IMG/VR virus record: IMGVR_UViG_3300014208_000036
Coordinates: 1-64,000 of that record
Reading direction: 5' to 3' (one strand)
Origin: a virus
Lineage: Duplodnaviria; Caudoviricetes
DNA length: 64,000 bases
Both the position numbers and the translations under genes were made by a program. A model generated the notes under the pieces. It was given only the letters and a program-made list of their open reading frames with translations. It was not told the DNA's origin and searched no databases. Below, in pieces: positions 32,960 through 42,621 of the stretch. Numbering within the stretch: position 1 is the first letter of the stretch; each line of letters starts with the position of its first letter.

Positions 32960-33229
32960 GTGCAAATTGTGGCATATCAATGGTATGCTTTTGGAATGGG
33001 CGATGTCGTAAAATTTTCTGATTACGTTGATGAATGGAAGGAGCTTTTTAAGCTAGATTCCTTATCGTCAACGCTGTACGTATACGGGAATAAAAAGACA
33101 GGATCGATCGAGGTGGTTCAAATTGATGATGAGATGAAATCAATTAGGACCTTGATCGATGAGCCGGATGCTCGTTTCATAATTGAGGCATTATGCCTTC
33201 ACCGTGGCATCGAGTTTAATCGCTTTTGA
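32960..33229 (+). CDS. Hypothetical protein
   Basis: Likely start MGDVVKF. Confidence 0.55.
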   Translation: MQIVAYQWYAFGMGDVVKFSDYVDEWKELFKLDSLSSTLYVYGNKKTGSIEVVQIDDEMKSIRTLIDEPDARFIIEALCLHRGIEFNRF

Positions 33230-33315
33230 CGAATTGTGTTTTCCATTAAAGGCCGCGGGAAATTTTCTCAATTGACACGTGATGTTTCGGTGCAGTCACC
33301 GATAAAAGGTATAAA

Positions 33316-34038
33316 ATGAACGAAGAAAAATCAGTGTTTAACATCCTTGATGAGCTTGAGTCCACCGCCGGGTCCAACGCAAAGAAGGAAATCCTGTTCA
33401 AGAATCGTCACAATGAACTTCTAAAAAAAGTTTTCATCGCGGCGTGCGATCCTTACACCGTTTACTACGTGAACAAGTTCAAGATGCCCGTTTCAAAAGA
33501 CGAACAGTCTGACGACAACATCCTGGATTATTTTTGTGACGTGGTGCTTCCGCCTTTGTCATCGAGGACTATGACCGGAAATGACGCGAAGCAGTGGGTC
33601 ACCGATGCCTTCGAAAGGATGAACGAAAATCAGCAGAAATGGTGCCTCCGCATTCTCCTGAAAAATCTTAGGGTTGGTGTTCAAGAATCAACATTGAACA
33701 AGGTTTGGCCTGGGCTTGTTAAAAGCTTCGCGGTCGCGCTCGCGACGACCGTGAAGAGTGAGTTCGTGAAAGGTGAAGGGATCAGGATCCTCGATAACGT
33801 CGAATATCCGGTTCGTTGTGAACCGAAGCTCGATGGATTGCGTTGCATCGCTGTGAAGCAAGATGGCGTCGTGACGTTATTTACACGTAACGGTACTGTC
33901 CTTGAATCATCCGCCTTACAGTCAATTAAAGAAACGTTGGAAAAACTTCCATATGATAATATTGTCTTAGATGGTGAACTTTTGGACGATGATCTTACAT
34001 GGAATAGCACAATTTCAGCAGCTATGAAAAAGAGTTAA
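33316..34038 (+). CDS. ATP-dependent DNA ligase, N-terminal half
   Basis: Motif I EPKLDG, FTRNG, motif III LDGEL; TAA at 34036. Confidence 0.9.
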   Translation: MNEEKSVFNILDELESTAGSNAKKEILFKNRHNELLKKVFIAACDPYTVYYVNKFKMPVSKDEQSDDNILDYFCDVVLPPLSSRTMTGNDAKQWVTDAFERMNENQQKWCLRILLKNLRVGVQESTLNKVWPGLVKSFAVALATTVKSEFVKGEGIRILDNVEYPVRCEPKLDGLRCIAVKQDGVVTLFTRNGTVLESSALQSIKETLEKLPYDNIVLDGELLDDDLTWNSTISAAMKKS

Positions 34039-34080
34039 AGATCATACCAAACGTGACTTACTAGTTATAGTACGCATTCT

Positions 34081-34821
34081 ATGACAATATTTCACGTATA
34101 CGTTGATTGGACAGATGAAAAATGTCCTAGACCATTTTATGTTGGAAAAGGAAATGAATTTCGTATTCAACATTACGTAAGAAACAAAAAACACAAATTT
34201 ATAAGAAAGACACTTGGAATACAACGAAAAATTGTATTTTCATCCACTAATGAAAAAGAGTGTTTTCAAAAAGAAATTGAGTTGATTTCAAAATATCATA
34301 CGTTTTACATAGATGATCTTGCTGACAAAGAAATTGTTTGTAATTTTACTAAAGGTGGAGATGGAACGACAGGTTGGATTCCAACTACTACTCAAAGAGA
34401 AAATATTGCTAAAGGCATCAAAAAAGCGTATGAAAAAAATCCTGAATTGGGGAAATTGATATCCGATAAGGCAAAAATTCGGATGAGCGACCCAAATTTC
34501 CGTGCGAAAATTTCACAAAAAATAAAAGATGCGTTGGCGTTAATGCCAGAAGATAAAAAGCGTGAAATGCATCAAAAATCAGCAGTTTCGAATAGAGGGA
34601 AAATCTCTCCACAAAGAGGCTCAAATTCGTGGAGAACAACGCTTAATGACGTTCTTGTAAGACAAATCAAGAACGAATATAATGATTTACGAAAAAATCA
34701 CAAAAAGACTAAAACTGTAAAATTACTTTGTGAAAAACATAATCAAACATATAATGTGATTTACAAGATCGTATCTAATGTAACGTGGAAACATATCGAG
34801 GTAACAAATAATGACAATTGA
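34081..34821 (+). CDS. GIY-YIG-type homing endonuclease with NUMOD-like repeats
   Basis: FHVYVD...FYVGKG..FRI...N.TKGGDG; AT-rich relative to flanks. Confidence 0.8.
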   Translation: MTIFHVYVDWTDEKCPRPFYVGKGNEFRIQHYVRNKKHKFIRKTLGIQRKIVFSSTNEKECFQKEIELISKYHTFYIDDLADKEIVCNFTKGGDGTTGWIPTTTQRENIAKGIKKAYEKNPELGKLISDKAKIRMSDPNFRAKISQKIKDALALMPEDKKREMHQKSAVSNRGKISPQRGSNSWRTTLNDVLVRQIKNEYNDLRKNHKKTKTVKLLCEKHNQTYNVIYKIVSNVTWKHIEVTNNDN

Positions 34822-35440
34822 ACTTAACGTATTCGATGGAATGCTCCTCAAGGATTGGGTTGAACAGACGCCGCACATGATGTACGGTGCACGAACGGAG
34901 TTCGTGAGAATTGTTCTTTCCGACATCAAGGCAACGAACATCAAGCAGGTTGACCACGTCGTCGTAAATTCCGAGGCCGAATTGAAGAATTTCTTTTCAA
35001 AGTGCATGGATGAAGGATTCGAAGGTATCATGTTGAAGACGATGGATTCGTACTACGAATTCAAGCGCTCTGATAACATCAGGAAGCTTAAGCCCTGCGT
35101 TACGTACGAAGGCGTCGTCGTTTCGTGCTACGATGGTCGTCGAGGAACCAAGCGTGAAGGTACGTTCGGAGGGATGGAAATCCTGCTTCCGAACGGTGTT
35201 ATCACCCGTCTTGGAAGCGGATTCAACGATGCAATTCGAGCCGACGTTCAATTGGAAGGTTACGATGCGTACGTTGGTAGGATCGTTGAAATTGAAGCTC
35301 AACCAGATCCATTGACAGCTGATGGATTGAGCGTCGATGGAAAGGCAAGGTTCCCAGTGTTTTGCAGGTTTAGAAGTCCTGCTGACGTCGATAGTAAGGT
35401 TGTTGATGCGTACGATGCGTACGTGAAAGGTTCAAGATGA
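34811..35440 (+). CDS. ATP-dependent DNA ligase, C-terminal half
   Basis: Motif IIIa LNVFD, IV EGIMLK, V KLK, OB fold GSGF, VI RFPVF. Confidence 0.9.
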   Translation: MTIELNVFDGMLLKDWVEQTPHMMYGARTEFVRIVLSDIKATNIKQVDHVVVNSEAELKNFFSKCMDEGFEGIMLKTMDSYYEFKRSDNIRKLKPCVTYEGVVVSCYDGRRGTKREGTFGGMEILLPNGVITRLGSGFNDAIRADVQLEGYDAYVGRIVEIEAQPDPLTADGLSVDGKARFPVFCRFRSPADVDSKVVDAYDAYVKGSR

Positions 35441-35775
35441 TTCTCTGGAAATTCAAGGAAAAACTTGAAACCCGAGGTGAGTCATATCCCTGCCGGGCGT
35501 TCAGATGGGTGATTGAAACAAATGCTTGGAAGAACGGTTCACGTGTAGTCTGGTCGTTCGGCCTGGTCAATCAACGCCAATCCAGAGATTCAACGGAATG
35601 GCGCAGTTCGCATACGCTAGCGTACGAAATTACCGTCACAAACAAACTGTCGTGGGGATCTGAACATTTTTGGTATGATGGTCCACATTGTTCGTTCTCG
35701 ATCGGTCCCATCACGTTTTCATGGGGCGACCTTCCATGGGGAGATCACTGTAGAAAGTGCTATAACGATGATTGA
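35437..35775 (+). CDS. Hypothetical Trp-rich protein
   Basis: ATGA-coupled. Confidence 0.65.
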   Translation: MILWKFKEKLETRGESYPCRAFRWVIETNAWKNGSRVVWSFGLVNQRQSRDSTEWRSSHTLAYEITVTNKLSWGSEHFWYDGPHCSFSIGPITFSWGDLPWGDHCRKCYNDD

Positions 35776-36016
35776 TGATATCGTCTACTATTGTGATAGC
35801 AAGAGGCACCTCGTGTGCACGCCCTACACGGTCGAGAATCTCCATCGTATGGCAACTGATCTGGGAATAAAGCGTTGTTGGTTTCATAGCGGTGCATCGT
35901 ACCCTCATTACGATATTCCCAAACGAAGGATCAATGAGATCACTGAGAAATGTACGCTTGTAAGTTCATATGTGATACTTTCGATTGTAAAGGAAGTGTC
36001 AACCGATGCTCGTTAA
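35768..36016 (+). CDS. DUF4031-like protein
   Basis: HLV...LHRMA..LGIKRCWFH...HYDIP. Confidence 0.75.
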   Translation: MIDDIVYYCDSKRHLVCTPYTVENLHRMATDLGIKRCWFHSGASYPHYDIPKRRINEITEKCTLVSSYVILSIVKEVSTDAR

Positions 36017-36054: not shown

Positions 36055-37401
36055 ATGTTCAAGCCACTCGAAAATTGTGATTATCAGTACCACAAGTACC
36101 TGGTAAGCTTCTTGAATGATTGTCCCTTTTATGCGACGCTATCGCAGCACTGTCGGTACGTATTGACCAACGATATTCCTACCGCTGCTGTCGGGTACGA
36201 TGTTGCGAATGATTCCATCACGATGGGACTCAATCCTGAATTCTGCCTTGCGCAGGAAGACTCGCAGATGAAGGGTCTGCTGAAGCATGAGTTCAATCAC
36301 ATCACGTTTGGGCATCTTTCCTCACGTAAACCGAGTGATACGAGCCTGTTCAAGCTCTGGAACATTGCAACTGACTGTGCGAACAACTCTTTGATTGAGG
36401 AGGAAGCAAACAACAGCTCGAACGTGAAGAAGCTTCCTGATTGTGTGATCGTTCCTGGACGTCGTTCGGTGATGTCGAAGGAAAAACTCGACAAGATGAG
36501 TGAGCAGGAACGTGAGGCTCATACGAAGTTTGCTGATATCATCGCTGGGCTTCCGAAGCTCGAAACTTCGGAGTACTACTTCTACAAGATCTACGAAAAA
36601 ATCAAGGATGACCCTTCGTTCGGTGGATTGAACGGTCAGGGAAATTTCGAAATTTCATTCGAACCCGGTGGTGGTGACGGCTCGCTCGACAGCCATGAAT
36701 TTTGGGGAAATATTCCTGAAGAACAGCGAGAATTCATCGAGCAAAAAATCAAGCAGGCTGTGGCCGAAGCTGTGAAGACTGCCGATCGTCAATCCAACGG
36801 TTGGGGTAACATTCCATCGCACGTCGTTGCCGAGATTCGTCGATCGGTGACGCAGACGATCAACTGGAGAACGATTCTTCGACAGTTCGTTGGTTCGATC
36901 TCCCGTGGGGCTCGAACCTCATCGATCAAGAGGATCAATCGACGGTATCCGTACATTCATCCAGGTACGAAGCGTGGTTACCAGACTAAGCTTCTCATCG
37001 CGATCGATCAATCGGGATCGGTTGATGATTCGATGCTCGGAACCTTCTTTGCCGAGCTCGACTCCTTGACGAAAAAGGTCGATGTTTCAATTCTTCCGTT
37101 CGATTGCGAGGCGAGTGAGAGTGAAATCATCGAGTGGAAGAAGGGTTCGAAGCTCGATCTCAAAAGGACGAGAATGGGTGGAACTGATTTCAACGCGCCT
37201 TCGCGGATCTTCAATGATCAGAAGAATAGAAATCGTTGGGATGGAATGCTCATCATGACAGACGGATGCGCCGGAGCCCCCGAGGCCGTACGTAAGAAGA
37301 GAGGTTGGGTCTTGGGTAAGGGTTGTAAGCTTGAATTTCCTTCGTCGGAACTCATCATCAATGTCGGTGACGAAGGCAATATGACCGGTGCCTGGCGCTG
37401 A
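36055..37401 (+). CDS. DUF2201-like metallopeptidase + VWA domain protein (MoxR partner)
   Basis: LLKHEFNHI; AIDQSGS MIDAS; GGTDF; MTDG; promoter GTGCAA-N18-TAAATC-TAGACC-ATG. Confidence 0.9.
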   Translation: MFKPLENCDYQYHKYLVSFLNDCPFYATLSQHCRYVLTNDIPTAAVGYDVANDSITMGLNPEFCLAQEDSQMKGLLKHEFNHITFGHLSSRKPSDTSLFKLWNIATDCANNSLIEEEANNSSNVKKLPDCVIVPGRRSVMSKEKLDKMSEQEREAHTKFADIIAGLPKLETSEYYFYKIYEKIKDDPSFGGLNGQGNFEISFEPGGGDGSLDSHEFWGNIPEEQREFIEQKIKQAVAEAVKTADRQSNGWGNIPSHVVAEIRRSVTQTINWRTILRQFVGSISRGARTSSIKRINRRYPYIHPGTKRGYQTKLLIAIDQSGSVDDSMLGTFFAELDSLTKKVDVSILPFDCEASESEIIEWKKGSKLDLKRTRMGGTDFNAPSRIFNDQKNRNRWDGMLIMTDGCAGAPEAVRKKRGWVLGKGCKLEFPSSELIINVGDEGNMTGAWR

Positions 37402-42009: not shown

Positions 42010-42621
42010 GTGGAATGTGAATCTTGTCATCAAGGGCATAATGCTAATTACGGTAGCGGGCGTTTCTGTAATGTTAGATGTGCTCGATCGTTTTCAACAA
42101 AGTCAAAACGAAAGGAAATAAATGAACGTGTTAGCAAGACTTTGACTAAAGCCAATGTTAACATAAAATTATGTCTTGAATGCTTAAATGAATTTCAAGC
42201 TCGTAGGAATCAACGTTGTTGTAGTATGAGTTGTTCTAGAAAATATCGTTATCGAGATGTCGAAAAACGACAAGTTCTGATAGAACAGCTTTTAAAAGTT
42301 CGGAAACCATGGAAATCTCGTAAAGCTCTAACACCGTCATTTCCAGAGCAATGCATCATGCAATGGCTCGATGAGTTAAATTTCACATATGAACGTGAAA
42401 TGCCATTTCAGAAATGGTTTATCGATTTTGTAATACACGATAAAAAAATCGCAATAGAAGTTGATGGTAGACAACACGGTTATCCAGAACAGCAAAGACG
42501 TGATCGAGAAAAAGATGAAGCATTAATTAAAGATGGTTGGCAAGTAATTCGAATTAGTTGGAAACGATTAACAAAACAATCACGTTTAAATATCATTAAC
42601 ATACTTCGGGCTATAGCGTAA
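42010..42621 (+). CDS. Zn-finger + DUF559/Vsr-like endonuclease
   Basis: CESC...FCNVRC; FIDFV...IAIEVDG.QH...D..KD..L...GW.VIRI. Confidence 0.85.
   Translation: MECESCHQGHNANYGSGRFCNVRCARSFSTKSKRKEINERVSKTLTKANVNIKLCLECLNEFQARRNQRCCSMSCSRKYRYRDVEKRQVLIEQLLKVRKPWKSRKALTPSFPEQCIMQWLDELNFTYEREMPFQKWFIDFVIHDKKIAIEVDGRQHGYPEQQRRDREKDEALIKDGWQVIRISWKRLTKQSRLNIINILRAIA

Follow-up and report, generated by a model that had tools for sequence, protein, structure and literature searches.

A predicted GIY-YIG homing endonuclease gene divides the ATP-dependent DNA ligase of an uncultured jumbo phage into two open reading frames

What becomes of an enzyme when a mobile endonuclease gene comes to lie in the middle of its coding sequence? 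Here we address this question for an ATP-dependent DNA ligase locus at positions 33316-35440 of a 64,000-nucleotide stretch of viral DNA (the window), taken from the IMG/VR record IMGVR_UViG_3300014208_000036 (Duplodnaviria; Caudoviricetes). The window is part of an 88.8-kb record that is estimated to be 23% complete. On the plus strand, the N-terminal half of the ligase (N-half; 33316-34038, 240 aa) encodes the DNA-binding domain and the first part of the nucleotidyltransferase domain, and ends at a TAA stop codon (34036-34038). A 42-nt spacer (34039-34080), which contains a second in-frame stop (TGA, 34054-34056), leads to an endonuclease open reading frame (ORF) of 246 aa (34081-34821) in the same reading frame as the N-half. 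The C-terminal half (C-half; 34811-35440, 209 aa) encodes the remainder of the nucleotidyltransferase domain, the oligonucleotide-binding (OB) fold and motif VI; its own ATG (34811) lies 11 nt inside the endonuclease ORF, in a frame that differs from that of the N-half. With two ORFs in different frames, and with stop codons and a 741-nt gene between them, the ligase is not encoded as one polypeptide. The best-supported reading of the locus is a working two-chain ligase whose adenylation pocket is assembled in trans, and we regard the association of the chains and the activity of the resulting enzyme as quite probable.

Despite this interruption, all of the nucleotidyltransferase motifs I, III, IIIa, IV and V are kept, divided between the two ORFs. 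The N-half carries motif I (KLDG, with K171) and motif III (DGE, 219-221), and the C-half carries motif IIIa (F248-D), motif IV (E311-G-x-M-x-K, here EGIMLK), motif V (K332-x-K334, LKPC/K) and motif VI (RFPVxxRxR). The Pfam matches divide in the same way: DNA_ligase_A_N (31.9 bits) and positions 13-81 of DNA_ligase_A_M in the N-half, positions 130-204 of DNA_ligase_A_M and DNA_ligase_OB_2 (29.9 bits) in the C-half, with DNA_ligase_A_M above the cut-off in each. PHROG 114, the ATP-dependent DNA ligase family, is covered from 85 to 316 by the N-half and from 327 to 512 by the C-half. An earlier description of the window, made from its letters without database searches (the sequence-only reading), had proposed this arrangement of three ORFs, with its coordinates, its stops, its spacer and the overlapping C-half ATG in another frame, and had assigned motifs I and III to the first half and motifs IIIa, IV and V, the OB fold and motif VI to the second; all of this is borne out.

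Where, then, does the break fall within the ligase fold? In the alignment to intact relatives, the N-half ends '...WNSTISAAMKKS' at its stop and the C-half starts 'MTIELNVFD', at a point where intact proteins read 'WNESASVLMSxKxKKDDSNIFYNVFD', which places the cut after motif III (DGE) and before motif IIIa (FD). The sequence-only reading had suggested this alignment as a check, and in it the two halves add up to the length of an intact protein (449 aa in total, against 441-476 aa in intact relatives). In the structural model of an intact relative, the break corresponds to the loop 234-245, between helix 226-233 and strand 246-254, where the predicted local distance difference test score (pLDDT) is about 66. 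By profile alignment, the N-half matches residues 6-226 of the solved ligase 6rar and residues 21-239 of T4 ligase (6dt1), while the C-half matches residues 242-430 of 6rar; T4 ligase is longer by about 58 residues at the break position. Judged from these models and alignments, the break site is a variable surface loop, and both chains are predicted to give strands and catalytic motifs to the nucleotidyltransferase domain. To call the ligase split through its active site, as had been done, is therefore an overstatement, since the cut lies in the low-confidence loop between motifs III and IIIa and breaks no structural element.

How common is a ligase gene in this state? Intact genes are the rule: in all 44 relatives on viral contigs (51-65% identity), which come from jumbo phages with as much as 369 kb, a single ligase gene is in frame and uninterrupted, and the endonuclease gene is absent. 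A protein search restricted by length nevertheless recovered at least 17 other distinct N-halves of 236-246 aa, at 44-62% identity, which end at the identical residue, and 15 relatives of the endonuclease, at 49-62% identity, were also found. The order of N-half, endonuclease gene and C-half is present in six of the six contigs that were fetched (L048, L049, L052, L054, L055 and L056), and the endonucleases of the split loci are homologous, at 35-76% identity. Among 80 loci from JGI metagenomes, the best 80 of 350 relatives, 74 carry an intact gene and 4 a split one, with the other 2 cut short by contig ends, which puts the split fraction of this sample at about 5%. C-halves were recovered from the loci found with N-halves, and a pattern scan of the viral contigs with the C-half gave none. 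The author of the sequence-only reading had known of no such ligase; at least 17 other diverged alleles are now seen to be cut at the same site by the same cassette, and phage T5 has a two-gene ligase of the nicotinamide adenine dinucleotide (NAD)-dependent family. In a tree of the ligase core, from which the N-half tail and the junction had been removed, the split alleles are scattered among intact ones at three or more well-supported positions, which forces at least three changes, and the approximately unbiased (AU) test rejects a single clade of split alleles (p-AU 3.8e-61). The two components also differ in their affinities: the window and L048 are 63% identical in the ligase core and 39% in the endonuclease, and the window and L054 are 40% identical in the core and 59% in the endonuclease.

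What travels between these alleles appears to be more than the endonuclease gene. The GC content of the window drops from about 0.50 to about 0.32 near position 33880, roughly 160 nt ahead of the N-half stop, and returns to 0.48 at about 34820. At third codon positions (GC3), the N-half core has 60% and the C-half 52%, against 27% for the final 165 nt of the N-half and 24% for the endonuclease gene. The stretch from 33880 to 34038, with an approximate left edge, is thus an AT-rich tail that still codes for ligase, including motif III. Over roughly the final 45 codons of the N-half, split alleles have features without counterpart in intact ones, a 2-aa insertion S-[SP]-[AG] (ESSA in the window) and DGE[LM]L, and their tails are of two types, DxDGTWNST...KK (in the window DGELL...TWNST) and ANGNWNDT...KGR. 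The tail indels occur in 7 of 7 split loci and in 17 of 17 further N-halves, and in none of 20 intact relatives. From its composition and its distribution, we take the AT-rich, split-specific tail to be the mark of homing in which the upstream exon was co-converted, and this upstream co-conversion suggests cleavage on the 5' side of the insertion. A co-converted AT-rich tail had been proposed from the sequence; its composition is confirmed and split-only indels are now added to it, and its length has to be corrected from about 120 nt to about 160 nt. The cassette also has something to offer at its other end, where, in each of the 7 split loci, the codons for WKH[IV]EV place GAGGT or GGAGG 5-12 nt ahead of the ATG of the C-half. 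In the window this Shine-Dalgarno (SD)-like sequence is the GAGGT at 34797-34801, within the last endonuclease codons (WKHIEV) and 9 nt 5' of the ATG at 34811, and RNA folding leaves the C-half start region unstructured.

Does the two-piece ligase work? The window keeps 115 of the 124 alignment columns that are invariant in 20 intact ligases, and four of its nine changes lie in the cassette tail or at the junction; intact controls lose 0-5 such columns. Between close split alleles, the tail that comes only with the cassette has a ratio of nonsynonymous to synonymous differences per site (pN/pS) of 0.02-0.11 at a pS of 0.5-0.8, and because this tail is confined to split alleles, its divergence must have taken place in the split state. 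For the whole N-half, the ratio of nonsynonymous to synonymous substitution rates (omega) between L054 and L060 is 0.056; most pairs of split alleles are saturated (pS 0.7-0.8), and these estimates of selection accordingly come from close pairs only. The split moreover outlives the gene that presumably caused it. In L105:3001-4376 (JGI Ga0114966_10001528) the endonuclease gene has been deleted down to a 47-nt spacer, which holds its last codons, the sequence AAGGT and the ATG, and both halves are open. In L093:907-2321 (Ga0181337_1001875) an internal deletion has left a remnant of about 150 nt of the endonuclease gene between two open ligase ORFs, and on the contig P0012 the endonuclease gene is lost, leaving a 46-nt gap, and the ligase is still split, with open ORFs. 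Three relatives with a completeness of 91% or more (369, 340 and 309 kb) encode exactly one ATP-dependent ligase each, and no NAD-dependent ligase was found in these three; nor was a second ligase found in the window's 88.8-kb record. Taken further, it is likely that these alleles encode a two-subunit ATP-dependent ligase whose pocket is formed from two chains held solely by the split nucleotidyltransferase fold, with no clasp peptides, in a form that outlives the endonuclease gene (L105, L093 and P0012) and for which the DD loop of intact ligases is dispensable once the loop has been cut.

Several observations weigh against a working enzyme, and some of them make up the case that the ligase was inactivated by a recent insertion, that its halves are pieces of a pseudogene which have not had time to decay, and that the phage makes do with the ligase of its host or with another of its own encoded outside the record. 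The residues DD (alignment positions D241-D242) are invariant in the 20 intact ligases, lie exactly at the insertion site, and are gone from all split alleles. The window's insertion looks recent from its unameliorated composition (cassette GC3 of 24-27% against 52-60% in the rest of the ligase), so the intactness of the window's own two halves is weak evidence when taken alone. Its ligase also has the longest terminal branch in its clade (0.95). Between L054 and L060, the synonymous divergence (dS) of the endonuclease gene is 0.46, against 1.12 for the flanking ligase; because the endonuclease genes are younger at synonymous sites, much of the constraint on the ligase core may predate each insertion. 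The low share of split alleles among the sampled metagenome loci speaks for inactivation as well. Phage ligases can be dispensable where the host ligase suffices, as in T7 and T4, and with the record only 23% complete, a second ligase could be encoded elsewhere in the phage genome. We still consider inactivation unlikely. In some 20 diverged split alleles both ORFs and every catalytic motif are preserved, the tail that exists only in the split state is itself under strong constraint, the SD sequence and ATG of the C-half are conserved, alleles that have lost the endonuclease gene retain both halves together with the start signal, and the near-complete relatives have no other DNA ligase to fall back on.

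A one-chain ligase could still be restored if the insert were removed, either from the RNA as an intron or from the protein by a split intein. There is precedent for both, given that homing endonuclease genes often reside inside group I introns and that fractured genes with split inteins, a DNA ligase among them, have been described (PMC2677866), and yet we hold such splicing to be highly improbable here. No Rfam family matches at E<=1 over 33000-36000 on either strand, and a group I intron core was not found in this region. The window's endonuclease ORF has 42 nt upstream of it and none downstream, with ligase homology extending to within a few codons of both ORF ends; across the alleles, the spacers measure 5-57 nt upstream and -29 to +62 nt downstream of the endonuclease. 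On the protein side, the Pfam scan found no intein family at E<=0.1, no extra residues are present in the halves compared with intact ligases, and because they sum to 449 aa against 441-476 aa, there is no room for intein blocks. The residue after the C-half Met is T, A or W, with no conserved nucleophile, and L105, which has no insert to remove, still has the stop, the 47-nt spacer and the ATG. The absence of both an intron and an intein, which the sequence-only reading had deduced from the lack of room and from the stops, therefore stands. The least credible explanation of all is that metagenome reads were misassembled and the endonuclease gene thereby joined into the ligase. The metagenomic source and the sharp change in composition at the insert might raise this suspicion, but the stretch 33316-35440 has 0 mismatches to contigs from two further assemblies, JGI 3300037810 and a 300-kb ENA contig, ERZ27249449 k141_1495229, and this identity between separate JGI and ENA assemblies makes a misassembly unlikely, as does the identical layout in six diverged contigs from other samples. 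Ribosomal bypassing of the kind found in T4 gene 60 was examined as a further route to a single chain and rejected: ATC occurs both before the stop and three codons into the C-half in L049 and L105, the corresponding codons are not conserved (AGT and ATT in the window, AAG and ATT in L052), and a gap of 780 nt makes bypassing implausible as well.

The gene in the middle is, by its predicted fold, an I-TevI-like free-standing GIY-YIG homing endonuclease, for which cutting activity and a target in the ligase gene are to be expected. Its AlphaFold2 (AF2) model has a pLDDT of 81.8 overall and of 86-95 in the N-terminal domain, and model and fold comparison divide the protein into a GIY-YIG nuclease (residues 1-95) with the topology beta-beta-alpha-alpha-beta-alpha, a putative helical NUMOD3-like linker and a putative C-terminal helix-turn-helix at about 182-235. 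In a Foldseek search the top 14 rows were all GIY-YIG, and the best match by VIA-align was I-TevI (1mk0; Z 9.3, root-mean-square deviation 2.5 A, 84 of 97 residues), with PD-T4-3 and UvrC GIY-YIG domains ranking next; this fold match bears out the free-standing GIY-YIG homing endonuclease proposed from the sequence. Residues 182-235 resemble helix-turn-helix and homeodomain folds at a Z of 4-6 only. In an alignment of 22 relatives, Y7, Y20, G22, R28, H38, E65 and N88 are invariant and occur in the order expected of a GIY-YIG nuclease, whose catalytic set comprises two Tyr, Arg, Glu and Asn. The identification comes from fold comparison alone, since Pfam gave no match above threshold for the window's endonuclease (its GIY-YIG model matches one relative only, at E 0.022) and a PDB sequence profile gave no match; NUMOD3 matches six distant relatives of the endonuclease and is without a match in the window's protein. 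The endonuclease relatives are under purifying selection (omega 0.07-0.23). I-TevI is the intron-encoded GIY-YIG homing endonuclease of the T4 td gene, and the two proteins are alike in their nuclease fold and probably in the architecture of linker and C-terminal helix-turn-helix; they differ in that the window's endonuclease is free-standing, and their identity is 11-12%.

The ends of the endonuclease gene and its surroundings vary among alleles. Most relatives stop after '...KH[IV]EV'; in the window this stop is lost and the protein runs on for 5-6 more residues (TNNDN), so that its gene comes to overlap the start of the C-half by 11 nt. Around the endonuclease start codon, a hairpin is predicted at about 34051-34097 (fold z = -2.06, a weak value; 4 of 200 shuffled sequences were equally stable), and no SD motif is evident for the endonuclease; the hairpin may reduce translation, as has been reported for endonuclease genes of T4. 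The spacers 5' of the endonuclease genes at L049:2410-2458, L052:2944-3000, L054:2960-3000 and L055:1604-1660 have in common the motif TTCCAAT...GGTGGTG...TTATATG, which may be a promoter or regulatory element of the cassette and which does not occur in the window's 42-nt spacer. Sigma-70-like promoters in the 3' part of the endonuclease gene (34655-34683 and 34728-34755) were dismissed, being as frequent in shuffled sequences. At L117:398-913 (Ga0187776_10092125), a gene more distantly related to that of the endonuclease (33% identity over residues 3-153) is found 5' of an apparently normal ligase N-terminus, and the endonuclease family therefore occupies intergenic sites beside the ligase gene as well.

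How might such a locus arise and function? We propose that a mobile cassette inserted in the single ATP-dependent ligase gene of an uncultured jumbo phage, in the loop between motifs III and IIIa. The cassette would consist of about 50 codons of donor ligase exon with their stop, the I-TevI-like GIY-YIG gene, and an SD sequence and ATG that restart the C-half. During co-infection, the endonuclease would cut intact ligase alleles, and repair would copy the cassette together with the flanking exon, which is co-conversion. The ligase would then be made as two polypeptides without RNA or protein splicing, and the chains would associate via the split nucleotidyltransferase fold, forming a composite adenylation site to which one chain would bring K171 and motif III, and its partner motifs IIIa, IV, V and VI.

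Among the closest known systems is the nrdA-a / mobE / nrdA-b locus of the Aeromonas phage Aeh1, for which the term 'genes in pieces' has been used (Friedrich et al. 2007 PNAS, as recounted in PMC2988022), and whose halves, in the account of Crona et al. 2011 (PMC3045599), are assembled via element-derived interaction peptides. In both systems a free-standing endonuclease gene lies in a conserved catalytic region of an enzyme of DNA metabolism, without intron or intein; each half has a translation start of its own, the gene is uninterrupted in relatives, and the active site is composite in Aeh1 and is predicted to be so in the ligase. The differences are equally clear. The host gene encodes an ATP-dependent ligase here and a ribonucleotide reductase in Aeh1; the endonuclease is of the GIY-YIG type here, whereas mobE is HNH; and activity has been shown for the Aeh1 enzyme, whereas the ligase is known from its genes. 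The ligase halves also have no conserved extension or clasp peptide, unlike those of Aeh1: the N-halves end KKS, KKK or KGR, and the C-halves begin 0-10 residues before the FD strand, with nothing in common between the cassette types.

Other phage replication enzymes are likewise made of two chains beside a seg or mob endonuclease gene, namely the split gene 43 (43A/43B) of Aeromonas phages 25 and 44RR and the T4 topoisomerase genes 39/60 with mobA (PMC2988022). In 44RR, gene 43 is split by an untranslated spacer only, a parallel to L105, L093 and the P0012 contig. The enzyme is a different one in these cases, and the order of events is clearer for the ligase, in which alleles lacking the endonuclease retain the last codons of its gene or a remnant of it. 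Phage T5 offers a DNA ligase encoded by two adjacent genes, ligA and ligB (NC_005859; PMC3326045); that ligase belongs to the NAD-dependent family, no endonuclease gene lies between ligA and ligB, and the T5 division appears, from the InterPro notes of the record, to fall between domains, whereas the ligase of the window is divided inside the nucleotidyltransferase domain. Fractured genes that carry split inteins, one of them at a DNA ligase locus (Dassa et al. 2009, PMC2677866), are similar in having a free-standing endonuclease gene, GIY-YIG in some loci, between the halves of a phage DNA-metabolism gene in metagenomes; unlike the ligase halves, which have no intein parts, theirs carry split-intein parts and are joined by protein trans-splicing. 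Three further candidates for split ligases were set aside, none of them with an endonuclease insertion: Ochrobactrum ORM_20 has an intact gene, SPO1L1 a probable frameshift and RsoM2USA a 428-aa ORF. In the literature that was searched, no published ATP-dependent DNA ligase split by an endonuclease gene was found.

The locus is thus a new host gene for the known genes-in-pieces phenomenon, and the ATP-dependent ligase joins ribonucleotide reductase, DNA polymerase and topoisomerase, the few essential phage enzymes that are known, or have been proposed, to work in pieces once a homing endonuclease gene has inserted. An unusually complete series has come from the metagenomes, comprising intact alleles, alleles invaded by either of two cassette types, a portable exon tail, and alleles that are still split after decay of the endonuclease, and with it, direct tests become possible both of the life cycle of the element and of the lasting change that it makes to protein architecture. 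The natural break in the motif III-IIIa loop could also guide the design of engineered split-ligase reporters.

A blastn search of an isolate phage collection with the locus region gave no match. Downstream of the ligase, the window encodes a DUF4031 protein (35675-36016) and a DUF2201/VWA-like protein (36055-37401); DUF4031 also lies 3' of the split ligase in L048, and the neighbourhood is therefore conserved. About 8.7 kb 3' of the ligase in the same phage (L063:18695-19306, approximately 42010-42620 in the window), there is a gene with DUF559 / MTES_1575 domains (Vsr-like endonuclease), which is called on the 300-kb contig and uncalled on the JGI contig L062, and which may be another mobile nuclease gene.

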